From assembly GCA_043764155.1 (NCBI GenBank), contig JAYUKW010000031.1:71439-135438 (forward strand): a stretch of 64,000 nucleotides of DNA, given 5' to 3'. The notes beneath the pieces are model-generated. The model was not told where the DNA came from, searched no databases, and was given only the letters and a program-made list of their open reading frames with translations. The stretch comes from Bdellovibrionales bacterium. GTDB lineage: Bacteria; Bdellovibrionota; Bdellovibrionia; Bdellovibrionales; UBA1609. A program made the position numbers and the translations under genes. The first letter of the stretch is position 1, and each line of letters opens with the position of its first letter. Positions 3,308-62,872 of the stretch are shown here, piece by piece.

Positions 3308-3446
3308 ATATTAATCCTATCTTTTATCTAATCAGGTTATCACTTTAATTTAGCGACTTAAGATTGTTTTACTTTAGATTACAAATCTTGACTAAAATCT
3401 AATATAATTTTCTAGCCATAAAATTTGGAATTGATACTATAAATTT

Positions 3447-3728
3447 ATGACTTCAGAAAAATTTCAAATCTTTAAAGACCGTGTTCAAGTGTATTTAGAC
3501 TGTAGCGCTTTTGACGTCAAAGCGCTTAAAGCTAATCTTGAAACCCCATCTAACACAGAGCTTTTAAAAATATTTAAAACTGAACTTCTTACGGCCATTC
3601 AGTCTGACACTCTGGATAGACATGTATACGAAGAGCTAACAGGTTTAGATTTTGACGATGATTTATCTTACAAGGACTACCTTCAAGTCATTTACAATTA
3701 TTTATTTGCTGGCGGCGCACAACCTTAG
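3447..3728 (+). CDS. Hypothetical protein (acidic, 93 aa)
   Basis: ORF only. No motif recognised. Confidence 0.4.
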   Translation: MTSEKFQIFKDRVQVYLDCSAFDVKALKANLETPSNTELLKIFKTELLTAIQSDTLDRHVYEELTGLDFDDDLSYKDYLQVIYNYLFAGGAQP

Positions 3729-7077: not shown

Positions 7078-7821
7078 ATGGATTTAAAAAATAAAAATAT
7101 TTTTATAACAGGTTCTAGCCGTGGAATTGGTGCGGGCATTGCTTTGAAGCTTGCAACCATGGGCGCTAAGGTCACCATCACTTATTTAAAAAATAAAGAC
7201 GAAGCTGATATAGTTTTTCAAGATCTGCCAGGCGAAGGGCATTTATTACTGGCCTTAGATGTTAATGATGAAGAGTCCGTCAAAGAAGCTACAGATTTGG
7301 CGATCAAAGAATGGAGTGGCAAAATTGATGGGCTAGTTAATAACGCCGGGATCACCCGCGATCAGCTGCTTTTAAGGATGAAAAAAGAAGATTTTGATGA
7401 TGTGTACTCGACAAATTTACGTGGATCTTTTTACACAACCAAAATGCTTTTAAAGTCCATGATGAAGTTGAGAAAAGGATCTATCGTAAATATTTCTAGC
7501 GTTGTTGGTCAAATGGGCAACGCAGGGCAGTCAAATTACTCGGCGACCAAGGCAGGATTAGAAGCTTTTTCAAGATCTATTGCCAGAGAAATTGGCTCTC
7601 GAAATATTCGAGTCAATGCCATTGCCCCTGGTTTTATTCAGACCGACATGACGGACGAGCTTTCAGAGGCTCAAAAGCAAGCTTTGATTAAAGATTTACC
7701 ACTTGGACGCTTAGGGCAAGTGGATGATGTTGCTGAAAGTGTAGCCTTTTTGTTAAGCGATGCTTCCTCGTATATCACTGGACACACGCTTCACGTTAAT
7801 GGTGGAATGTTCATGAATTAA
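7078..7821 (+). CDS. fabG: 3-oxoacyl-ACP reductase (SDR)
   Basis: TGSSRGIG cofactor motif, NNAG, YSATKAG (YxxxK). Confidence 0.95.
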
Positions 7822-7883
7822 ATTATAACTATATAAAAACTAGGAGAACTAAAATGTTAGAAACAAAAAATAATGGAGGAGTT

Positions 7884-8117
7884 ATGTCATTGGATCCAAA
7901 AATTAAGAAGATCATCGAAGATCAGTTAGGTGTTGAAGGTGATAAAGTCACTCCAAACGCTTCATTCATTGATGATTTAGGCGCTGACAGTCTTGATATC
8001 GTTGAGCTGGTTATGGCTATGGAAGAAGAATTTGACATGGAAATTCCAGATGAAGACGCTGAAAAATTAAAAACTGTTCAGAACGTTATGGATTATATCC
8101 AGAGCAAAAAAGGGTAA
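7884..8117 (+). CDS. acpP: Acyl carrier protein
   Basis: [19 protein letters not shown] phosphopantetheine site. ATG 7884 is preceded by GGAGGA; the track ORF starts upstream at 7854. Confidence 0.95.
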
Positions 8118-14645: not shown

Positions 14646-15143
14646 ATGCACATGTTTAGAACTCAACAGCTTTTTATTTTGTTTATTGGCCTATCCCAGT
14701 GTGTACAGTCCTCGAATAGAAATATAATTGAGCCTCAGATCACTATGATGTCCGGTTGGGTGTCCCCTGTTGAACCCAATGTCACCTTGACCCAAAAATT
14801 TAGACCAAAGTACAACTCCAAACATAAGGGCGTCGATTTAGCCGGTAAAATGAACCAGCCTTTATTTGCCACTAATAGTGGTGTTGTAACCTATAAAGGC
14901 GACAAATTTAGAGGCTACGGTAAAATGATTTTACTTGAGCACAGCGAAGGCTGGACTTCGCTGTACTCACATCTATCAAAATTTAATGTCGATAACGGCG
15001 ATAAAGTTTATGCGGGACAAGTTATTGGATATATGGGACGAAGCGGACGCGCGTCTGGTGTGCATCTGCACTTTGAAGTTTATAAAAACAAAATCCCTAT
15101 AGATCCCCTAAGAGTCGTCCCAATCCGATACAAATTTAAGTAG
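14646..15143 (+). CDS. M23 (LytM-type) metallopeptidase
   Basis: HKGVDLAG and GVHLHFEV zinc-ligand motifs. Signal peptide present. Confidence 0.85.
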   Translation: MHMFRTQQLFILFIGLSQCVQSSNRNIIEPQITMMSGWVSPVEPNVTLTQKFRPKYNSKHKGVDLAGKMNQPLFATNSGVVTYKGDKFRGYGKMILLEHSEGWTSLYSHLSKFNVDNGDKVYAGQVIGYMGRSGRASGVHLHFEVYKNKIPIDPLRVVPIRYKFK

Positions 15144-15519
15144 TACTTATTTAGATCTTAATTATGACTTCAAATTTCAAAATAACTCTAAGTCTTTCCT
15201 TATAATTTTAATATAGGCGAAGCCTTGTCATTTGCCCTGCAGCTCGAGAACTCCAAAAAATATATTTTAATTTAAGATCCTTGAGATGATTTATAATAGG
15301 CTCGTTGGCATGAAGCCTTGCGGTTTTTTGCAAGGCAAATGACAAGGTCTGTCCTATTATAAATCATCTCAAGGATCTTAAATTAAAATATATTTTTTGG
15401 AGTTCTCGAGCAAGGCTTCGTGCCAACGAGCCTATATTAATATTATAAAGAAAGACTTAGAGTTATTTTGAAATTTGAAGTCATAATTAAGATCTAAATA
15501 AGTACTACTTAAATTTGTA
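15129..15519. repeat. Nested giant palindromic element (outer unit with a split core, plus a complete inner unit)
   Basis: Outer arms 15129-15217 / 15431-15519 (89 nt, 2 mismatches). Inner arms 15243-15300 / 15353-15410 (58 nt, perfect). Inner core 15301-15352. Outer half-cores 15218-15242 and 15411-15430. All verified base by base. Confidence 0.9.
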
Positions 15520-15541: not shown

Positions 15542-16267
15542 TTATCCAACAAGAATGATGTGATTGTCTTTAGAGTTCACTTTCATGATGTCACTTCTAC
15601 GGATGCCTAGGTTAACGAAGTCGATTTGGGATTCCATGGATTCAAGTATTTTCATTTGATTATAAATTTTAGTTACTTCTTTTCTAATAAAATTTAAGAT
15701 CTGTGTTTTATATTTAGGTCTAAGTGCGACAAACTTGACGCTAAATGTTTCGCTTTCATTTTGACCATTTACGATACTTAACTTATCTATTCTTAAAATT
15801 TCTGCGGAGGCATTAAAAGATTTCATCTTAAGTTTTGAATGGTACGGAAAGTGAACTTTAATTTTATCCTTCATCATTAATTTACCAAAAGGAAGTTCGA
15901 TACGGGCTCCGCCGGCACTGAGCTGTTTACATTTACCTTGGATCACTTCCCCATTTTTAATGATCACAATTGAAGAGCTATCTAATTCAATACGAACATG
16001 AGATCTGATTTTCTGATGTTCAGATCTAGGGCTGTAAGTAGTCAAAAAGGCGTCTACTTCTTTTGAGTTAAAACATTCAAGCTCGGTCATTTTAACCCAA
16101 TCTGTATGCTCGTTGGTTCTAACGTACTGGTGACGAGTTAAACTCTTGGCTTGAAGCATTAAACATAATTCAGGATAACTGTAGGGCCCCAACCACCTTT
16201 GACCACATCTTAAATGCCATATTTGGCTTAAAAGCTTTATTTCGTGAGATGTTAAATAAACTTGCAT
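15542..16267 (-). CDS. GYF_2-domain plus PilZ-domain protein (putative c-di-GMP receptor)
   Basis: N-terminal WLGPYSYPELCLMLQAKSLTRHQYVRTNEHTDWVKM is GYF_2-like. PilZ motifs RSHVR (RxxxR) and QLSAGGA (D/NxSxxG-like). Confidence 0.7.
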   Translation of the reverse strand: MQVYLTSHEIKLLSQIWHLRCGQRWLGPYSYPELCLMLQAKSLTRHQYVRTNEHTDWVKMTELECFNSKEVDAFLTTYSPRSEHQKIRSHVRIELDSSSIVIIKNGEVIQGKCKQLSAGGARIELPFGKLMMKDKIKVHFPYHSKLKMKSFNASAEILRIDKLSIVNGQNESETFSVKFVALRPKYKTQILNFIRKEVTKIYNQMKILESMESQIDFVNLGIRRSDIMKVNSKDNHIILVG

Positions 16268-16451
16268 GGGCCTTTCCTATTACTAATTTTATCGGAAATT
16301 AGGGCTTTAGACTTAAGCCAGTTTCAAAATAAGACAGTTATAATTTACGCCAAGTGTCTTAAAGAGCCTTCGAGCTGTCGTTTGTTATTAATTTGTTGTT
16401 TAGAATAGCATTTTGGGTAGTCTTTATATGAACGGGCCCTTCAAGGAGAAC

Positions 16452-17418: not shown

Positions 17419-17494
17419 GCGGAGTTAGCTCAGTTGGTAGAGCACCAGCTCGACATGTTGGTGGTCATAGGTTCAAGTCCTATACTCCGCACCA
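17419..17494 (+). tRNA. tRNA-Val (anticodon GAC) with encoded CCA and an unusual C at position 33
   Basis: Hand-folded cloverleaf. Acceptor GCGGAGT/ACTCCGC, D arm GCTC/GAGC, anticodon stem CCAGC/GTTGG, loop TCGACAT, T arm ATAGG-TTCAAGT-CCTAT, A73, CCA. Confidence 0.85.
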
Positions 17495-19205: not shown

Positions 19206-19456
19206 TTCCATATTTATAAATATTTATTTATTATGTCTAATCATTAGTTTGCGGAATAGTTATAACCTTTCGTTCTGGAATTTGTTGTCCTGCAAATAAA
19301 CAAACAGAACTTAGAGCCAAAAGGAAATAGATTTGTGAATATGAAAAATTTTTCGATAAAGAAAATATTTATATTTTTATCATTATCTATTTTAATAATT
19401 ACATTTCAAAAATAAATGATGATATATAAAAAAGGACTTGAAGCGTATTAAAAATA

Positions 19457-19885
19457 CTAATCATCTTTATTCAATCTCAATTTCAGATTAAATAATCTGA
19501 AATTGGTAGAGTCGTCGTTCTCGATTATTTCGACATCATAAATTTTATTTTCTTTTAAATAAATGTAATCAAAAGCCCGATCAGACCTTTCATTAGGTAA
19601 TGCAAAAACAGTCTTGCTATCTGTGTATTTTAGCAGGATAGAAATTAGCTGCTTTTCAAAATAATTAAACAAAAATACGTCCCATGAACTACTAAATATA
19701 GAATCTAACTTCGTAAACTGAATTGAATTTTCTTTTAGCTCATGAGCTTCTGTAATGACTTCTAATTTATCAGTATAAAATTTTTCCTGAACTTTTAATT
19801 CATTTAATATCAAAGAAACTTTATCCAAACTAACACAAGCCAATACGGATCTTGATAAAAAATTAATCTTTTCAGATTTATTCAT
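19457..19885 (-). CDS. Hypothetical protein (142 aa)
   Basis: ORF only, flanked by very AT-rich non-coding DNA. Confidence 0.4.
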   Translation of the reverse strand: MNKSEKINFLSRSVLACVSLDKVSLILNELKVQEKFYTDKLEVITEAHELKENSIQFTKLDSIFSSSWDVFLFNYFEKQLISILLKYTDSKTVFALPNERSDRAFDYIYLKENKIYDVEIIENDDSTNFRLFNLKLRLNKDD

Positions 19886-21409: not shown

Positions 21410-22050
21410 TAAAAATTTAAAAAGTTTTTCACCCAAAGTTCAAAGACATCTTTCGGGTTATGATTTAACCCCATTGTTTTTAGTGATGTGACTTCAGTCG
21501 AACACTGACCACAGACTTCGAATAGTTTAAACTTCTCTAAATCATTATTTACATTAATGGATAAGCCGTGGCTGACCCAGCCGCGGTGATGATGAAGCCC
21601 CAAAGACATTATTTTTTTATCATCAATAAAAATGCCAATATTTTGCTTATCATTCGATGTAACATTAAGGCCTAAATCTAAAAATGTTTTTTTTGAAATA
21701 TTTAAGATGAATTGAATGTAGTTTCTTAAAGTGAGCTGATTTGATTTTAAATTTAAGACTGGATAAATAATCAACTGACCTGGATTGTGCAGGGTCAGCT
21801 TCCCGCCCCTTAAAGTTAAGTCTACAGAGTTAAATACAGAATTATAGTGTGACAGATCTGTAGCCCATAGCGACTTACCAACACTTAAAACTTCTGGATG
21901 TTCACACCCCAAAATTAAAGTGCTGTCTGGATCGTGACTTTCTACATGTTCGGTTTGAAGTTTAAAAGTCTCTTTGATGTCTATTAAACCTAACCACTCT
22001 GACTTAAAGCTTATGGCACTACTCATGCTTTCATTCATATTATTATTCAT
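21397..22050 (-). CDS. lipB: Octanoyltransferase (lipoate-protein ligase B)
   Basis: LGCEHPEVLSVGKS and RGGKLTLHNPGQLIIYPVL are LipB signatures. C-terminal CG context (FEVCGQ). Confidence 0.85.
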   Translation of the reverse strand: MNNNMNESMSSAISFKSEWLGLIDIKETFKLQTEHVESHDPDSTLILGCEHPEVLSVGKSLWATDLSHYNSVFNSVDLTLRGGKLTLHNPGQLIIYPVLNLKSNQLTLRNYIQFILNISKKTFLDLGLNVTSNDKQNIGIFIDDKKIMSLGLHHHRGWVSHGLSINVNNDLEKFKLFEVCGQCSTEVTSLKTMGLNHNPKDVFELWVKNFLNFYYLQ

Positions 22051-22952
22051 GGCTCTAATAACTCGTTTTCAGAATAGGTCTTAAAGATAATTTGATTGTC
22101 TAAGATTTCATTTTTGTAGGGTCCATTCACAAAAACTAGTTTTTTTAAAACCTCAAATGGATTTGATGGAGCATAAATTTTAAAAGTATATTTATTGTTT
22201 TCAGAAGTATAAAGCTGCACATTTTCAAGTCCAATTCCAAGACTGTCTTTGATCGTGACACGAATTTGACCCAATTCCTCAAAAGTAAGTTCGCTTTCGA
22301 AAATGACTTGGTATTCATTTCCTGGGGAATTGTGTTTTTCATAAATTTTATTAGATGATTTATTTAAAATTTGGTCATTTAATTCTTGAGTTAAACCCCT
22401 AAAGCTAGAATCAGAAGTAAAAGTGCCTGTTCGGGATAAAAATACTAAATTTAAAGCCGAATTTTTAATTTGATAAAATGAAATTTCATTTAAATCTGCA
22501 CTTTCTATATTTTTAGAATCTAAAATCAAATTCCCAGTGATCAAATAATAATTTTCAAAGTTTTTAATATTGGATGAATTCACATTGGATAACATAAATT
22601 CCATGTCTATATTTTCTTTTAAAAAATCATCTTTCATTTTTTTTAAAACCTGTTTGAAAGCCACAGGAATTTTTAGCTTGTTTGGAACGCTAACCGGGGC
22701 CATTTCGGTTTCTAAAGGTTCTGTTTGACTGATCCACCAGCTGTAAGACTTTAATGAGTTTTTTTCTGTCATTTTAATTCTTGGAACAACAATAATTTTA
22801 AGAACTTCTTTAGTAGCCAGATTTGATATTTTTGTTGGCTCCTTTTTTTCTATGTTTTGAGAATATCCAATTTTCGTTGAAATTAAGATTAATAAATATA
22901 ATAAAATATTTGAATATAAATTATTATGTTTCAATCTAAGACCCCAAATCAA
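22047..22952 (-). CDS. Secreted/membrane-anchored hypothetical protein
   Basis: 301 aa with a hydrophobic N-terminus. Overlaps the dnaE 3' end by 17 nt and the lipB start by 4 nt, indicating an operon. Confidence 0.5.
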   Translation of the reverse strand: MIWGLRLKHNNLYSNILLYLLILISTKIGYSQNIEKKEPTKISNLATKEVLKIIVVPRIKMTEKNSLKSYSWWISQTEPLETEMAPVSVPNKLKIPVAFKQVLKKMKDDFLKENIDMEFMLSNVNSSNIKNFENYYLITGNLILDSKNIESADLNEISFYQIKNSALNLVFLSRTGTFTSDSSFRGLTQELNDQILNKSSNKIYEKHNSPGNEYQVIFESELTFEELGQIRVTIKDSLGIGLENVQLYTSENNKYTFKIYAPSNPFEVLKKLVFVNGPYKNEILDNQIIFKTYSENELLEP

Positions 22953-26696: not shown

Positions 26697-26826
26697 AACC
26701 CCGAAAGGTGCCAGGTTCCGTTTGAGAATTAAAGCTGTTTATTTAGATTTAATAATTGATATATTCCCTTTTAGATCATTCTAAATTGATTTAATTCTCA
26801 AACGGAACCTGGCACCTTTCGGGGTT
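26697..26826. repeat. Perfect 37-nt inverted repeat with a 56-nt spacer (terminator-like or structured RNA)
   Basis: aaccccgaaaggtgccaggttccgtttgagaattaaa at 26697-26733 and its exact reverse complement at 26790-26826. Starts 9 nt past the RND gene stop. Confidence 0.85.
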
Positions 26827-31450: not shown

Positions 31451-31686
31451 AGATTAGCCCCCCAGCTGCAAACGAATATACGATTGTTTCTCTAAAAAAC
31501 ACAAATAGGACCTGGGAACATCATGTTATTTATTATAATTCTAGATTTAAGCAATTTTAAGTTTTAGACACTGATCGGCTCGACTCGTATTCGTACCTTT
31601 GAATAGAATGGGTAAATTAAATTTTTCAAATATAAATGTTTATAAAATAGACCAAATTTTAAATTTTATTTTAACATAAGGAAAAT

Positions 31687-32130
31687 ATGACAACTGAAGA
31701 TATTCTTTTTGATGGTAAAGGGTCTTTAAAAGCCTATTCAAGTGCTCTTTGGATGATGGGTCTATTTTCAATTGTGACCATTGGAATTGGTTTAATTATC
31801 ACGATCCCAATGTTTATTAAAATTTGGCTTGAAGTAAAAACAACTTATTACAAAATTTCTTCTAAGCGAATTCAAATAGAAAAAGGATTACTAAGTACGA
31901 CGATCAATTCACTTGAGCTTTGGCGCATTAAAGATTTGAAGTACCAAAGAAATCTTTTTGAAAAACTAACAGATGGTTGCACTTTAAGTCTGATGACCCA
32001 AGACGTATCAACCCCTGATTTAAATTTGAAAGGATTTACGGCCAATGAAGGTCGAACACTATTTGATAAACTGCAAAATGCAGTTTCAAATGCGCGGCGA
32101 ACTAATGGCACGGTGTCTTTAACAAGTTGA
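31687..32130 (+). CDS. Membrane protein with a bacterial PH domain (bPH_2/YdbS-like)
   Basis: Two N-terminal TM helices, then YKISSKRIQIEKGLLSTTINSLELWRIKDLKYQRNLFEKL, which is typical of bPH_2. Confidence 0.6.
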   Translation: MTTEDILFDGKGSLKAYSSALWMMGLFSIVTIGIGLIITIPMFIKIWLEVKTTYYKISSKRIQIEKGLLSTTINSLELWRIKDLKYQRNLFEKLTDGCTLSLMTQDVSTPDLNLKGFTANEGRTLFDKLQNAVSNARRTNGTVSLTS

Positions 32131-32209
32131 TGACAAACTAATATCCATATTATTGATCCCACTCAATCTTAGTCTGATCTTGGAACAAAACTAGACTCAC
32201 GCAGCAGTT

Positions 32210-32276
32210 GAGACAGAGTCGGTAATAATAAAATCATGACAGAATCGCTTCATATAGACACATAAAAAAAAATTTT
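32210..32276. repeat. Solo, partly degenerate copy of the IS right end plus its flank
   Basis: 32238-32276 is a 39-nt perfect direct repeat of 33573-33611. 32210-32237 is a degenerate match to 33543-33572. Confidence 0.8.
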
Positions 32277-32288
32277 TGTCGATAGCAG

Positions 32289-33583
32289 GCGATTCTGTCC
32301 CGTAGATTGTTAAGGGATTTTGTCTCGTGAGTATATTTAAGCAGCATTTAATTCATAAGGCGAGTGCTTATGAACTTTTTCTAGTTCTAAAGCTCGTCCA
32401 GCAAAAAATACTTTCGATGTATGATCCTTATAAAAACGTATTTCCACATCTTTTTTAGATAAATTTATTGGTGGATTTTTTATTAAAAATTTTTCTCCAC
32501 GCCAGCTTATCGTATGGTCAAGAGCAACTCGTCTTTGATACTTCATACAAAAAATTTCATTTAAATTTAAACCCTCAGGAACTTGTCTGTATGCAGATTC
32601 TTTTTTTATCGGCTTAACTGTATGTTTATTTTTCCATTCGGTCTGCATATAATTATTAAAAAACTTATTCGCATCTTCAACATTATTAATTTTTTGTAAC
32701 CTCATTTCTGCAACTAAACGGTCCTGCAAATAACCCCATAAGCGCTCTATTCTGCCTTTAGCCTGAGGACTATTGGCGCATATAACTTCGATCCCCAGCT
32801 CTTCACATGCCCTAGAGAATTGAGTAAAATCTTGCCGCTTTGTTCCCCCAAGCCAACCCGCACGATCTGTATAAATATATTTTGGTATTCCTTTTATCTT
32901 AATTATCTTTTCAACTACATCCATACAATTAATCGTGTCTTCAGTTTTATAAAACCCACCAAATGGTACATCACTTGTTGCATCGTCTATCGCCGCTATT
33001 AAAACTGTCGTTTCTCCTTTCCAAAACATGTGCTCACACCCGTCCATTTGAAGCATAAAGCCTTCGTTATGATGACGCTGACGGTGACTGTGTCCATTTG
33101 GCTTTCTGTGTTTACGGGTGCGCTTAACTAAATTCCATTCATGACACCATTTTCTAAAGGTGGAGTAACTAATATTTAAATTAATATCTAATTGAAGCTT
33201 TTCAAACATATGTAAAATATTAAAATCATAATACCTTCCAATCGCATATTGATAAGCTAAAGATTTTAACTCCGATGAGGATTTATTCACTGGCGCTTGC
33301 CCTTTGTTACCATGTAAAATTGCTGTTATGCCTTCCAGGCGAACTTGCGAAGCTATTCTTGAAATAGATCTCTCTGATAAATTTAAAAACAAGGCGCAGT
33401 CTTTACGACTTAAAGTGCCAGAAATAAACCTCTCAATACTGTCGATTTGATGTCGTTCTTTTGATGACAAACTAACTCCCATACCCTTTATTCCCCCAAA
33501 CTCACGTCTCACCTTGAAACACTACAAGACTAACGCACAGGGGAGGACAGAATCGGGTAACAATTTACACGGGACAGAATCGC
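32289..33583 (-). mobile_element. Insertion sequence (about 1.3 kb) with one rve-type DDE transposase
   Basis: Imperfect terminal inverted repeats GCGATTCTGTCCCGTAGATTGTTA (32289-) and TAACAATTTACACGGGACAGAATCGC (-33583). One transposase ORF inside. No clear target-site duplication seen. Confidence 0.75.
32337..33482 (-). CDS. DDE transposase (HTH plus integrase-core/rve domain); family unresolved, ISNCY- or IS481-like
   Basis: DGCEH..., IAAIDDATSD, YTDRAGW, ANSPQAKGRIERLWGYLQDRL. ATG 33482 follows AAAGGG; the track ORF extends to GTG 33512. Confidence 0.85.
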   Translation of the reverse strand: MGVSLSSKERHQIDSIERFISGTLSRKDCALFLNLSERSISRIASQVRLEGITAILHGNKGQAPVNKSSSELKSLAYQYAIGRYYDFNILHMFEKLQLDINLNISYSTFRKWCHEWNLVKRTRKHRKPNGHSHRQRHHNEGFMLQMDGCEHMFWKGETTVLIAAIDDATSDVPFGGFYKTEDTINCMDVVEKIIKIKGIPKYIYTDRAGWLGGTKRQDFTQFSRACEELGIEVICANSPQAKGRIERLWGYLQDRLVAEMRLQKINNVEDANKFFNNYMQTEWKNKHTVKPIKKESAYRQVPEGLNLNEIFCMKYQRRVALDHTISWRGEKFLIKNPPINLSKKDVEIRFYKDHTSKVFFAGRALELEKVHKHSPYELNAA

Positions 33584-33683
33584 TTCATATAGACACATAA
33601 AAAAAAATTTTATTTAAAAAATGTAACTTAAATCTACGAATTTAATCGAATTAAACTAAACTGATTAAGCAGCCGTAAGTCTA

Positions 33684-34457
33684 GTGATGCAGATTTTAAA
33701 ATTTTGTTTTTTAAGTTTAATCTTAGCTTCTATTACATCCTGCTCTTTTCAAGAGCTCACAGTGGCTAGTCTTGGATCAATTGATAATTTTGATGACACA
33801 GAGATTGATGACGACTTTGTTCCACCTGAAGACGAAAAAGAGGAAGAGATCGTAGACGAACCATCGCCCGTCATTCCAGGTGATACATTAAAAAATACTT
33901 TTTTTATTGAGCAACAAAGTTTTAATTTAGCCCACGGTCCTTCGAAAAGATGGGATGGATGTCGACAAAATCATAAGTCTTCTGGTGGATATAATAGTGA
34001 TCTTAGTTGTGGCCGCGCATTTATTGAAGACAAATTTGGAAAAAATCTAAATCAAATTTTTTTCAAATGTGTCTTCGATGCGTCTAATGAAGCTAAGTAT
34101 ACCAATATTCAAAAAATATTTATAAATCATCTAGGAAGCTACAACGATAGAACAGCTAGAAATTCAACTAGATTAAGTCATCATGCCTATGCCAGAGCAT
34201 TAGATATAAAAAACTTTAATTTAATTGATGCGAAAGGAAATAACTTTAAAATTAGTACTTTGCTTAGAGACTACAAAGGGCAACAGGCCATTTTTTATGA
34301 CAGCTTCAGGCAGTGTTGGAAACAGTCTATGCCATCATCTTGCAAACCTGGAAATTCAGAGCACGAAGGATCTGTAGGACATAATTCGTCTAAGCTTGGT
34401 GGCAATACTCTTCATAATGATCATATACATTTATCTTTTCCTTTGTGTGCGGGGTAA
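33684..34457 (+). CDS. Lipoprotein with a LAS-type zinc-peptidase-like (extensin-like C-terminal / M15-like) domain
   Basis: Lipobox LASITSC. SHHAYARALDI and HNDHIHLSF resemble the SxHxxGxAxD ... HxH metal-site motifs. Confidence 0.55.
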   Translation: MMQILKFCFLSLILASITSCSFQELTVASLGSIDNFDDTEIDDDFVPPEDEKEEEIVDEPSPVIPGDTLKNTFFIEQQSFNLAHGPSKRWDGCRQNHKSSGGYNSDLSCGRAFIEDKFGKNLNQIFFKCVFDASNEAKYTNIQKIFINHLGSYNDRTARNSTRLSHHAYARALDIKNFNLIDAKGNNFKISTLLRDYKGQQAIFYDSFRQCWKQSMPSSCKPGNSEHEGSVGHNSSKLGGNTLHNDHIHLSFPLCAG

Positions 34458-34463
34458 TTTTTT

Positions 34464-34925
34464 ATGAAGAATTCAATTTTGATTTTTTTTACTATTTTCA
34501 TTTTTTCTTTTTCGGCGTCGGCTGAAGAGAAAATGAAAATTATTGCCAAGAACTCTTTCAATGTAAGATTACTTAAAAAAATCCCCCTAGCTGGCGGCCA
34601 TTTTGTCTATTTAACAGTTAGAGACGAAGGCCATGTTTTGGGTCAAAATTTTCTAGTTCAATTACGAGCAAGCTGTAAAGGTGAAGTTGATGATTTTTCT
34701 TCATTAAAAATTTTAGATTCAATTTCAGTTTGTAATTTAAAACCTGAATCTGTGAAAACAAATAAGAATTTAACTGCATTAGCTTTTTTATCAAAATCCG
34801 CAAATATAAATAAATATTATGAAGACATATCAAATGGAAAAACAGAACCTAATGTTGACTGCAACGCTAAAACCGAGATCCTAAAGTTCTCTCTAAAAAA
34901 TATTTGTTTAAATTCAAATTCTTAA
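34464..34925 (+). CDS. Secreted hypothetical protein
   Basis: Signal peptide MKNSILIFFTIFIFSFSASA. 153 aa. Confidence 0.45.
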   Translation: MKNSILIFFTIFIFSFSASAEEKMKIIAKNSFNVRLLKKIPLAGGHFVYLTVRDEGHVLGQNFLVQLRASCKGEVDDFSSLKILDSISVCNLKPESVKTNKNLTALAFLSKSANINKYYEDISNGKTEPNVDCNAKTEILKFSLKNICLNSNS

Positions 34926-35017
34926 TCAGCCAAGTATGCTTTTTCACCGGCTTGAAGATTTATTTTTAAATGACCTACAGGTAAGTAACCCCCTTCAAGA
35001 ACAAGAGGCGAAGTTTA

Positions 35018-35190
35018 TCTAAGAAAACCTCCAGTAGATTTATTTAAACTTAAAAGATATTTGATATTTAAAACAGGCGAGACCTTGTCATTTGCTTTGC
35101 AAAAAAATTGCAAAGCTGTATGCCAACGAGCCTGTTTTAAATATCAAATATCTTTTAAGTTTAAATAAATCTACTGGAGGTTTTCTTAGA
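35018..35190. repeat. Giant hairpin element, copy B (60-nt perfect arms plus 53-nt conserved core)
   Basis: Arms 35018-35077 / 35131-35190 are exact reverse complements. Core 35078-35130 is CGAGACCTTGTCATTTGCTTTGCAAAAAAATTGCAAAGCTGTATGCCAACGAG. The element ends 1 nt from the guaA stop. Confidence 0.9.
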
Positions 35191-35191
35191 C

Positions 35192-36715
35192 CTACTCCCA
35201 CTCAATAGTTCCCGGAGGTTTGCTACTGACATCATAAACCACGCGGTTCACACCTTTGACTTCATTTGTAATACGATTTGAAACTCTGGATAAAAATTCA
35301 AATTCGAAGGGATACCAATGGGCAGTCATACCATCGACAGAGGTGACTGCTCTTAAAGCCACAACCTTATCATAGGTTCTAGAGTCCCCTTGCACACCAA
35401 CAGCTCGGATAGGAAGTAAGACAGCAAAGGCTTGCCAGATTTTATCATAAAGGCCGGCCTTTCTAATTTCATCTATGTAAACGGCATCGGCCTCTTGAAG
35501 AATTTTAACATCTTCAGGGTGAATCTCGCCTAAAATACGAATCCCTAAACCTGGTCCTGGGAAGGGATGACGATCAATTAAGTACGCCGGCATATCTAAG
35601 GCTTTCCCGATTCTTCGAACTTCATCTTTAAATAAATCACGAAGTGGTTCGATCAATTTTAAATTTAAATCTTTAGGCAACCCACCGACATTGTGATGGG
35701 ATTTAATAGTCACACTCGATCCGGTTGGCGATACACTTTCAATCACATCAGGGTAAAGAGTTCCTTGAGCCAACCACTTAATATTTTTATCTTTAGGAAT
35801 TTGTGCTTTGAAAACTTTAATAAATGTATGTCCTATCGCAATTCGTTTCTCTTCAGGATCAGATTTTCCTTTTAAGGCATCAAAGAAATCTTTTTCAGCT
35901 CTCACTCCTTTTACATTTAGACCTAAGCCATCATAGGATTTTAAAACCTCATCGAATTCATTTTTTCTAAGTAAACCCGTATCGACAAAAACACACATGA
36001 CTCGATCAGGCCCAAATATTTTAGTAAGTATAGTGGCCGTTACACTTGAATCTACCCCACCGGATAAACCACACAAAATCACTTCATCGTCTTTAACTTC
36101 AGATTTATATTTATCCGTTAAACTTTGCAAAATTTCTTTGGGCTTCCATAATTTTTGAACTCGTGGAGTTTTTTGTAAAAATCTTTCGAACCACAAATGA
36201 CCATTTTCAGTGTGGGTCACTTCAGCATGAAACTGTAAACATAATATATTTTCAGATTCTAAAGCCGCGGGAAAACCGTTTTCGCTCACAGCAATCTGTT
36301 TTAATTCTTTTGGAATTTCAGAAATCACATCCCCATGGGACATCCAGACTTTTGAATTTTTTAAATCTGAAGTTTTTGAAATCACTTCTGAAAGACCGTA
36401 CTCACGATGATTAGAGCTTGTAACTTTGCCCCCAAGCTTGTGAACAATCAGCTGCATGCCGTAACAGACACCTAAGATTGGGGCTATCGCTAACAATTCA
36501 ACGATGTCCCGAACAAAGCCTTCTTTGTCTGTCACAGATCTAGGGCCACCGCTTAAAACAATTCCAGCAGGATGTCTGGATTTAATGATTTCAGTTTTAT
36601 AATTATAGGGATGGACTTCGGAGTAAATTCCCATTTCACGAAAACGTCTAGCGATTAATTGTGTGTACTGGGACCCAAAATCTAAAATTAAAATCCCTGA
36701 ATTTAAATTATCCAT
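35192..36715 (-). CDS. guaA: GMP synthase (glutamine-hydrolysing)
   Basis: GATase GVCYGMQL, PP-loop CGLSGGVDSSV, C-terminal KPPGTIEWE. Confidence 0.97.
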   Translation of the reverse strand: MDNLNSGILILDFGSQYTQLIARRFREMGIYSEVHPYNYKTEIIKSRHPAGIVLSGGPRSVTDKEGFVRDIVELLAIAPILGVCYGMQLIVHKLGGKVTSSNHREYGLSEVISKTSDLKNSKVWMSHGDVISEIPKELKQIAVSENGFPAALESENILCLQFHAEVTHTENGHLWFERFLQKTPRVQKLWKPKEILQSLTDKYKSEVKDDEVILCGLSGGVDSSVTATILTKIFGPDRVMCVFVDTGLLRKNEFDEVLKSYDGLGLNVKGVRAEKDFFDALKGKSDPEEKRIAIGHTFIKVFKAQIPKDKNIKWLAQGTLYPDVIESVSPTGSSVTIKSHHNVGGLPKDLNLKLIEPLRDLFKDEVRRIGKALDMPAYLIDRHPFPGPGLGIRILGEIHPEDVKILQEADAVYIDEIRKAGLYDKIWQAFAVLLPIRAVGVQGDSRTYDKVVALRAVTSVDGMTAHWYPFEFEFLSRVSNRITNEVKGVNRVVYDVSSKPPGTIEWE

Positions 36716-61251: not shown

Positions 61252-61394
61252 TAGATTAAGTTTTAACTTTATAAGTTATGTAATAAATAAACTAAGCGAA
61301 GCGAGTGTCACTCGCCTTGCAAAAAAACGGCAAGGCTTCGCGCCATCGAGCTTAGTTTTTTTATTACATAACTTAAAAGTTAAAACTTAATCTA
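61252..61394. repeat. Giant hairpin element, copy C (about 46-nt arms plus a diverged conserved core)
   Basis: Arms 61252-61297 / 61350-61394 (1 indel, 1 mismatch). Core GAAGCGAGTGTCACTCGCCTTGCAAAAAAACGGCAAGGCTTCGCGCCATCGA. Starts 6 nt after the lptD stop. Confidence 0.85.
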
Positions 61395-61693: not shown

Positions 61694-62872
61694 ATGAGTA
61701 TCTTTCAGCAGATGTTCAATTCTGAATTAAAAAAACTAAAGCCAATATTTTGGGTTATTCATTTATTTTTCTTGTTTAGTTATTCTTTTTTGAAAGCGAA
61801 TGACTGTACTTATTATCTGTTCGATTCCAAAGTTCCTACTCACAGAACGATGTTGCCTGCTGAATTTATCGAAGTATTAAAAACTCATCGAATAAACAAT
61901 TTAAGTCATACAATTGGTGGAGGAAAGGGATATGCTTTTAATATTTTACACTACGCTAAAGATGGAATCATTAACCGGTCTAACATTGCTTATCTAGGTG
62001 AAACAAACCAAGCTGATTTCACGGCTAAAGTAATGCAAAAGCTATTTCCATTGGCAGATTTTCCTCATAATCCAAAAATTAAAGAAAATATCACCAAGGG
62101 GCAAATCTATATTTTAATTCAAGACAGCTATTACAAACATGATAATTTTATGCCTTTTGAGTTAAGTATGCCGTTGATAAAAAGTGCTAACCCACTAATT
62201 TCTGAAGAGGAGGATGGATTATTAAAATCGTTACTTTCCCTAAGTCCTGAAGATAAGGTTGTAAGTGTTTATGGGACTTTGACTTCCTCTGAAAAAATTA
62301 ATGGAGGTGGCAATAATACTGTATCTCCTAATTTAATCGTTTCATCAATTTTAGAGGCGGATATAAAAGTAGCTTTAGTAGTTCTTTCGAGACAGAGTGG
62401 TCGGTATCCAGAATTCGATTTAGAAAATCTAAAAAATAGTGGTGTTTCAGTTTATTTCCTGAGTGAGATTCTTGAAAATAAAAGGAGCAGTCTCTTCCTT
62501 CCTGCTGTTATACTCAATGATACAACAGGTCGAATGCCTTTGATCTATGGCTCTGCTGATTTAGCATTTAGTATTGGTCCAGTTAATTTTTTTGAAGGAC
62601 TGTTACATAAAATACCCACAATTATTCTTCAAGGCGAGTTAAATGGATACAGTAAGCACACATTTTTCAAATCAGTTTCACTTGCTAAGAAAACTAATGG
62701 AGCTTTGTTCGCTGATAACTTGGAAAATATAGCTGAATTAATTTTGAAAGCTGAAATGATTGATCAATCACAAATATTACCTGCTTATTTAATCAAAGAT
62801 ATCGATGGTCAAAATTCAGTAGTTAGATATTTGGATAGACTTTATGAAATTGTCACTTCGCAATTAAAGTAA
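61694..62872 (+). CDS. Hypothetical protein, possibly a GT-B glycosyltransferase (WaaA-like C-terminal motif)
   Basis: LNDTTGRMPLIYGSADLAFSIG resembles the DTMGEL..LY..ADVAFVGG block of Kdo transferases. N-terminal TM helix. Lies next to lptD. Confidence 0.35.
   Translation: MSIFQQMFNSELKKLKPIFWVIHLFFLFSYSFLKANDCTYYLFDSKVPTHRTMLPAEFIEVLKTHRINNLSHTIGGGKGYAFNILHYAKDGIINRSNIAYLGETNQADFTAKVMQKLFPLADFPHNPKIKENITKGQIYILIQDSYYKHDNFMPFELSMPLIKSANPLISEEEDGLLKSLLSLSPEDKVVSVYGTLTSSEKINGGGNNTVSPNLIVSSILEADIKVALVVLSRQSGRYPEFDLENLKNSGVSVYFLSEILENKRSSLFLPAVILNDTTGRMPLIYGSADLAFSIGPVNFFEGLLHKIPTIILQGELNGYSKHTFFKSVSLAKKTNGALFADNLENIAELILKAEMIDQSQILPAYLIKDIDGQNSVVRYLDRLYEIVTSQLK

Follow-up and report, generated by a model that had tools for sequence, protein, structure and literature searches.

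A 64,000-nucleotide stretch of Bdellovibrionales DNA was analysed (the window, in what follows), with a G+C content of about 29–41%. On its reverse strand lies guaA, whose product has its best protein matches at 81–88% identity; the matches with a named source (72% identity or less) are mostly from Bdellovibrionaceae/Bdellovibrionales. A gene at 34464–34925 on the + strand is convergent with guaA, and between the two we found a perfect inverted repeat of 61 nt per arm (35018–35078 / 35130–35190) with 51 nt between the arms. We call this element copy B; its left neighbour is the gene just named. A sequence-only reading of the same DNA had already placed perfect arms one nucleotide from the guaA stop codon, between convergent genes. 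Position, gene arrangement and perfection all held, but its arm length of 60 nt (core 35078–35130) was one pair too short. The features of the locus are:

35018–35078: left arm of copy B, 61 nt, 25% G+C, half of a perfect inverted repeat
35079–35129 (+ strand): core of copy B, family 1, an imperfect palindrome scoring 58.5 bits against the family profile
35085–35091 (+ strand): 5' half of the lower core helix P2, TTGTCAT, pairing with 35120–35126 with one T x C mismatch
35094–35116 (+ strand): apical stem-loop P3, GCTTTGC-AAAAAAATT-GCAAAGC, bearing a compensated T-A pair
35120–35129 (+ strand): right block ATGCCAACGA, more strongly conserved than the rest of the core in a comparison of three genomes
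35130–35190: right arm of copy B, terminating 1 nt short of the guaA stop codon
35192–36715 (− strand): guaA (GMP synthase), whose stop codon at 35192–35194 delimits copy B

Shuffled sequences fold at about −26 kcal/mol, whereas the full 173 nt reach −105.4 kcal/mol as the + strand (z = −23) and −106.3 kcal/mol as the − strand (z = −20). Folded alone as single-stranded DNA, the core of copy B reaches −10.8 kcal/mol (+ strand) and −13.2 (− strand), and cores folded alone in this way are only modestly stable, at −8 to −13 kcal/mol. By blastn, the left arm has no second copy in the window or in any of the loci that we fetched.

The core of copy B is related to other DNA of the window. Its blocks GACCTTGTCATTTGC and ATGCCAACGAG recur unchanged when 15301–15352 is read as its reverse complement (26/27 by blastn), as had been noticed from the sequence, and the apical stem differs by a compensated pair, GCTTTGC/GCAAAGC in copy B against GCCTTGC/GCAAGGC in the copies at 15.3 kb (the inner one) and 61.3 kb; the inner 15.3-kb copy indeed contains CCTTG twice. 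The further claim that the two conserved blocks are not complementary to each other failed: TTGTCAT (35085–35091) and ATGCCAA (35120–35126) pair at six of seven positions, and the T x C mismatch, at the fourth position of this lower helix, is kept in six of the seven family-1 copies. Because the conserved blocks are thus partly complementary, the core is itself an imperfect palindrome, as can be seen by setting one half, GGC-GAGACC-TTGTCAT-TT-GCCTTGC, against the reverse complement of the other, GGC-TCG-TTGGCAT-GAA-GCCTTGC.

Further copies were sought in two ways. A pattern that three of the window copies fit was scanned against public genome and metagenome contigs: the genome contigs gave one true match (locus L004) and three chance matches, the metagenome contigs two chance matches and nothing true, and viral sequences chance matches only. 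A blastn comparison of the core with plasmid and phage collections gave no match. We also fetched the neighbourhoods of GuaA, QueF and LptD homologues, about 290 kb altogether, in which the relatives are represented by fragments of about 20 kb. Core profiles run over about 260 kb of sequence, chance matches set aside, found, beyond the known elements, only two copies in one relative, and no core without long arms. Within the window, core matches occur at four elements only. Three further loci, L030–L032, have no core, and no element was found in the roughly 20 kb of each of L011, L013, L016, L017 and L029–L032. The resulting set, a small one from which all inferences below are drawn, comprises nine copies from three related genomes: seven of family 1, to which the core of copy B belongs, and two of a related family 2. 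L004 comes from the Bdellovibrionales MAG JANODG01, the closest NCBI-held relative that we found for the window genome (LptD 82% identical); the second relative carrying elements is a 986-kb ENA contig (ERZ25039505), represented by loci L009 and L028. Besides copy B, the copies are:

15129–15519 (window, + strand): outer 15.2-kb copy; arms 15129–15218 / 15430–15519, 90 nt, 98% complementary
15242–15411 (window, − strand): inner 15.3-kb copy; arms 15242–15300 / 15353–15411, 59 nt, 100% complementary; core 15301–15352, 64.1 bits
61241–61405 (window, + strand): 61.3-kb copy (copy C); arms 86–93% complementary with an indel; core 61298–61349, second subtype
7231–7278 (L004): family-1 core between arms 7131–7230 / 7279–7375
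21999–22202 (L028): family-1-like element; core 22048–22153, apical region enlarged
about 19420–19598 (L028): family-1-like element; core about 19460–19540, apical region enlarged
3418–3668 (L009): family-2 element; core 3513–3573
16163–16338 (L009): family-2 element; core 16222–16279

The two copies at 15 kb are nested: the inner one lies in the apical loop of the outer one, whose core it splits, and has the opposite orientation. The left arm of the outer copy extends over the final 15 nt of a gene for an M23 peptidase. Copy C begins 6 nt inside lptD, and its core is 90.7% identical (over 54 nt) to that of L004; with its decayed arms, copy C is older than the other copies in the window. Family 2 has the same architecture as family 1, and the motifs common to both are only 5' (A/G)GCTCG and 3' RTGAC.

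When the nine copies were compared, several features of the element emerged: (i) the common part is confined to the central 50–60 nt (about 55 nt), and the arms, of some 50–100 nt and 18–27% G+C, are locus-specific in all nine, each matching by blastn only its own partner; (ii) the arms are perfectly complementary in five copies, 98–99% complementary in two and decayed in two, from which it follows that complementarity is first perfect and can later erode, the imperfect arms of copy C and L028d being those of old copies; (iii) every non-nested copy has one boundary near a stop codon (−48, −15, −6, −6, +1, +6, +7 and about +13 nt); and (iv) no direct repeat of the target-site duplication type is present in the 40 nt outside each arm. 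Conservation is highest in the right half of the core, CAAG.CT.C..GCCA(A/T)(C/A)GA, and the TGTCA block varies, reading TGGGA in one copy. The apical loop is a hot spot, being occupied in three copies, by the nested element in the outer 15.2-kb copy and by 52 and 31 extra nucleotides in the two L028 copies. The orientation of the core with respect to the stop-proximal gene varies, being reversed in copy B and L028c and forward in L004, L028d, copy C and the outer 15.2-kb copy; A-runs and T-runs flank the core in L028c, L028d, L009a and L009b. Past the perfect part of the arms, identity decays in L004 and L028c and weakly so in copy B (8/14). In the outer 15.2-kb copy the mismatches lie near the core and not at the outer end, so that an outward gradient of decay is not universal. 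The notable feature of the family is a conserved core that always sits inside a long, locus-specific palindrome, probably of host DNA, and not the covariation of a putative RNA. This goes beyond the sequence-only reading: no two loci have the same arms, and at the one locus where their origin could be tested, L004, they come from the host.

Where do the arms come from? At L004 the inverted repeat (7131–7230 / 7279–7375) extends 48 nt into queF and covers its last 15 codons. The 15 C-terminal residues of QueF (VHKQKGYELPEDLMI) are kept in orthologues of 67–88% identity, and at the nucleotide level the L004 arm matches queF of L013–L015 at 22 of 23 positions. The orthologous queF loci L011 and L013 have neither inverted repeat nor core after queF; a tRNA gene is found there instead. 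Because the end of queF is conserved in orthologues at element-free loci, this sequence comparison shows the left arm of L004 to be native host coding DNA and its right arm, therefore, to be the inverted copy; host origin is shown for this copy only. The L004 right arm supplies about the last 11 codons of the convergent MFS transporter gene, in another frame than queF. That gene (7339–7992, − strand) keeps only positions 1–176 of the 347 in its Pfam profile, the N-terminal half. Since the inverted copy encodes the end of the MFS gene and half of the profile is left, the copying event at L004 also remodelled or truncated this neighbour.

Elsewhere the comparison was less informative. Neither arm of copy B could be demonstrated to be native host DNA, and the intergenic regions of L009 and L017, compared in search of a native arm, are not alignable. 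For the C-terminus of the M23 peptidase at the outer 15.2-kb copy we found no close orthologue, the alignments stopping before its last four residues. The arms of the inner 15.3-kb copy do not derive from the outer core that surrounds them, which leaves two histories for the nested pair: either arms can travel together with their core, or the outer loop was expanded beforehand.

Occupied sites were also compared with their counterparts in relatives. Downstream of guaA, the element is absent from four relatives (L009, L016, L017 and L029), and the gene to the left of copy B shows no orthology to the gene after guaA in L029. The DNA that follows guaA (31451–35191 in the window) is occupied by different gene sets, with intergenic distances of 1 to 135 nt, in each of these four relatives; within the clade, the position is a hot spot of gene turnover, by gain as well as loss. 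At lptD, yebC follows directly in L028 and L031, and the window has copy C and an extra ORF at that place. This ORF (392 aa, 61694–62872, between lptD and yebC) matches no Pfam or NCBIfam model. Two further contigs end near lptD. The contig of L027 (12344–12527), from the JANODG01 MAG, stops 184 nt after the lptD stop codon. About 95 nt after that stop codon it has one half of a core like those of family 1 (TTTGGCACAGGCTTGC), which is oppositely oriented and has another arm. The contig of L030 (6793–6807) stops 15 nt after lptD, and these nucleotides are like the start of the copy C left arm at 13 of 15 positions. Assemblies thus seem to break at these palindromes, and several genomes may have an element at the lptD site; the state of this site in the relatives is ambiguous, and in the JANODG01 MAG it is not simply empty. 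Copies B, C and L004 all lie at synteny breaks, and one core subtype occupies non-orthologous sites, after lptD in the window and after queF in the JANODG01 MAG.

We then considered whether the conserved pairing reflects an RNA. RNAalifold, run on four copies, recovered the apical stem and the lower helix. In a gapless seven-copy alignment of both helices (14 pairs), scored against 500 shuffles and slid controls, 85.7% of the alignment cells pair and 4 of the 14 pairs have changed on both sides, a count that only 2 of the 500 shuffles and none of the slid controls reached. In L028c and the outer 15.2-kb copy, three other stem pairs have been lost with no compensating change. The G.U pairs make inconsistent demands on the strand, the second subtype calling for the reverse strand and the outer 15.2-kb copy for the forward one. 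The sequence-only reading had taken covariation, together with conserved unpaired blocks, as a sign of selection on a folded nucleic acid or on a protein-binding site. The compensated changes themselves stood up to this count, but selection on an RNA is not supported by them, as copying makes complementarity by itself: a single template switch can yield perfect stems, homogenised arms, inverted spacers and compensated pairs (PMC8794818; PMC8604942). Because the elements themselves create complementarity by duplication, covariation is here weak evidence for selection on a folded RNA. The hairpin is conserved, orientation and wobble pairs do not favour RNA, and nothing in these data says RNA; a DNA hairpin or a site recognised by a protein fits better than a discrete small RNA.

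Searches for expression signals and known RNAs agree in being negative. At the gathering threshold, the only Rfam match in the window is a tRNA (17419–17491), and permissive settings returned only generic long-hairpin models (plant miRNA precursors), far below their cut-offs. A consensus scan of 34900–35300 on both strands found neither a sigma-70 promoter nor an intrinsic terminator. Intrinsic terminators consist of a G+C-rich stem of 5–20 pairs and a loop of 3–8 nt, followed by a T-run; in the core, the apical stem is followed by TGTATGCC, with no T-run, and we rejected this candidate. The earlier view, of a conserved and partly asymmetric core that a plain terminator would not explain, is borne out, the scan for terminators being negative. 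Sigma-54 promoters have the spacing GG-N10-GC (TGGCAC-N5-TTGC). On the reverse strand, the right block and the stem read TGGCAT-ACAGCT-TTGC, that is, GG-N11-GC in all family-1 copies, not N10, and a sigma-54 promoter was likewise rejected. A conserved three-way junction or mini-hairpin around TGTCA was rejected too: the 61.3-kb copy can form one, but L004 and the A/B subtype cannot.

What kind of element is this? Our preferred reading, to which we give a probability of roughly 45%, is that copy B belongs to a family of REP-like and probably mobile DNA cores, imperfect palindromes of about 50–60 nt, each of which forms the centre of a long palindrome of local host DNA. The arms could then arise as follows. 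When the core becomes single-stranded, at a replication fork or from a nick or break at its edge, its two halves would pair; the 3' end could then prime synthesis back along the same strand, or switch template, and the reverse complement of one flank would thereby be written on the other side of the core. Recurrent events of this kind would keep the arms perfect and extend them, would allow the core to flip, and would copy mutations across the stem, giving rise to 'compensated' pairs. Selection may tolerate such overwriting no further than the point where the neighbouring gene ends, and arms would then stop at or near stop codons, and a gene that serves as the copying template would permit the deeper intrusion seen at L004 and the outer 15.2-kb copy. 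The weak residual similarity past the perfect part in L004, L028c and copy B may be a trace of such copying. The closeness to stop codons could also have a simpler cause, in the compactness of intergenic regions or in a role like that of a terminator. Core mobility, a fold-back or template-switch step and a core-recognising enzyme are what we infer from the pattern; in the loci examined, the core could not be tied to any nuclease, transposase or reverse transcriptase. A bolder version of the preferred reading has a substantial, if smaller, chance of being true: the core may be selfish DNA of a categorically new sort, a 'palindrome maker' whose propagation or maintenance is obligatorily coupled to fold-back synthesis by a putative core-specific nickase or similar enzyme, and which would turn 3'-flanking or coding DNA of the host into hairpins, remodel gene ends and mark rearrangement junctions (guaA, lptD, queF).

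Four other explanations have to be weighed against a mobile core that acquires its arms locally. The core might be an immobile cis-element of the host (a site for a protein, say, or a hairpin resembling a terminator) that gains palindromic flanks passively, since any hairpin would promote template switching during replication. Template switching is a general process, and the copies do lie at gene 3' ends, sometimes with A-runs or T-runs (L028c, L028d, L009a, L009b). We nevertheless consider this unlikely: guaA and queF of relatives do without the element, cores that are 90.7% identical follow different genes in the window (lptD) and the related MAG (queF), one copy is nested within another, distribution among close relatives is patchy, and ordinary hairpins at these loci have no arms of 50–100 nt. 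More improbable still is a structured RNA (a small RNA or a 3'-UTR element) in which the core would be functional and the arms a processing or stabilising stem, for instance a substrate of RNase III. It would account for the maintenance of two helices with four pairs changed on both sides, for the P2 pairs of the second subtype, which all hold on the reverse strand with one G.U, and for a location just past stop codons, in what would be 3' UTRs. Yet the outer 15.2-kb copy and the second subtype need their G.U on different strands, the loss of three stem pairs is uncompensated, and the orientation of the core relative to the stop-proximal gene is mixed. The unique arms offer no shared promoter, and the scan found neither promoter nor terminator; no Rfam family reaches its threshold, and an arm that copies host coding DNA is left unexplained.

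A conventional MITE, with arms and core transposing together and the long terminal inverted repeats representing many low-copy subfamilies, has slim chances by comparison. The elements are indeed short and without genes, lie in intergenic DNA and vary in their presence, and the arms of the inner 15.3-kb copy are unrelated to the outer core around them, as if a whole hairpin had been inserted. A MITE should have conserved termini and a variable interior, and we observe the reverse: the arm pairs are unique in nine of nine copies, no copy has a direct target-site duplication, an L004 arm is native queF sequence, and the sole transposase of the window, of the ISNCY family, belongs to an element with unrelated ends. 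An artefact of assembly or sequencing, such as a chimeric palindrome, deserves hardly any credence. Repeats do disturb assembly, and the contigs of two relatives end 15–184 nt after lptD; but three assemblies, independent and unlike in kind, show the same architecture with related cores, each element lies within its contig with different genes on either side, and old copies with decayed arms exist.

The preferred reading, a REP-like mobile core, invites comparison with known systems. REPs and REPINs are mobilised by RAYT transposases (Y1 HUH). Like them, the core is a short (about 50–60 nt), repeated, extragenic imperfect palindrome found after stop codons or between convergent genes, and it retains a conserved mismatch, as hairpins recognised by proteins do. 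Judged by itself, the core answers to the description of a REP, with seven family-1 copies, two conserved helices and the conserved mismatch. REP copies are alike over their whole sequence, whereas here only the centre is common and the flanks of about 50–100 nt are locus-specific; moreover, family-1 cores lack the 5' GTAG signature. With MITEs such as Correia, RUP and Nezha, the element shares small size, lack of coding capacity, hairpin formation, variable intergenic presence and occasional nesting; these have conserved termini and direct target-site duplications, in contrast to the unique termini, conserved centre and missing duplication seen here. The ISNCY transposase, 1.5 kb from copy B, was rejected as a mobiliser, its ends (TGTCGATAGCAGGCGATTCTGTCCCGT) being unrelated to the core or the arms.

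The arms, for their part, resemble the products of template switching at quasi-palindromes or of fold-back synthesis: reverse-complement copies of adjacent sequence, perfected stems, inverted spacers and compensated pairs (PMC8794818, PMC8604942). Through such events a long palindrome can grow from a short inverted repeat whose centre is asymmetric. The events known from bacteria are short and sporadic, unlike one conserved family with arms of about 50–100 nt at every copy. Palindromes with a non-palindromic centre are formed in the rDNA of Tetrahymena. Integron attC sites are likewise 3'-end hairpins, often over the stop codon, locus-unique and with conserved unpaired bases. In attC, however, the outer ends are conserved (R''/L'' and L'/R' boxes) and the centre varies, the inverse of the present arrangement, and there is no cassette array here. 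The stem-loops at the 3' ends of chloroplast genes have loops that flip by recombination between the arms. They too are inverted repeats after genes with the spacer in either orientation, but they are locus-specific hairpins without a shared mobile core. An invertible promoter switch (inverton) was rejected, as the arms have no sequence in common between copies and no promoter-like site was found. We found no description of such elements in the literature, in Bdellovibrionota or elsewhere, and know of no bacterial repeat family that copies the end of a neighbouring host gene backwards. No known family matches the whole element, and we file it with the small palindromic repeats of the REP/MITE type.

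If a conserved core does seed the writing of arms from host DNA, bacterial repeats would have a means of shaping genomes that is new. Such a process would produce long perfect palindromes, normally considered unstable, rewrite the 3' ends of genes, as with the last 11 or so codons of the L004 MFS gene taken from an inverted copy of queF, and sit at synteny breaks. The family also counsels caution in RNA discovery, for compensated pairs and perfect stems can arise from DNA copying and not from selection on RNA. Standard repeat finders would miss it, since no more than about 55 nt recur and everything else is unique.

Other repeats were noticed in the window and its relatives. The ISNCY-family insertion sequence (32221–33611; transposase 32337–33512, − strand, NF033594, 322 bits) has 27-nt terminal inverted repeats at 32277–32303 and 33569–33595 and an extra solo end at 32221–32276, of which 32238–32276 is identical to 33573–33611. 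It sits in about 3.7 kb of lineage-specific DNA between guaA and a 510-aa gene. Another long palindrome (26697–26826) is perfect in the outer 37 nt of each arm, which are richer in G+C (AACCCCGAAAGGTGCC...), and degenerate in its inner part; it has no family-1 or family-2 core and ends 8 nt from the stop codon of an AcrB-like gene. The intergenic region between this acrB-like gene and dnaE, which holds that palindrome in the window, holds a family-2 element in L009. At 1697–1759 lies a near-perfect palindrome of 30+30 nt with a 3-nt centre (...GAAGCTTTGCAAGCTTC...) and no conserved core. Finally, an unrelated hairpin unit (CGCTGGCACGGCCACATGCAWAGCTGTACAGCTTCGCTTGCCGTGGCGGTTTTC) occurs in a related genome, in tandem after lptD (L028, 12330–12500) and once after guaA (L009, 11527–11585), and looks like a REP-like or terminator-like repeat.
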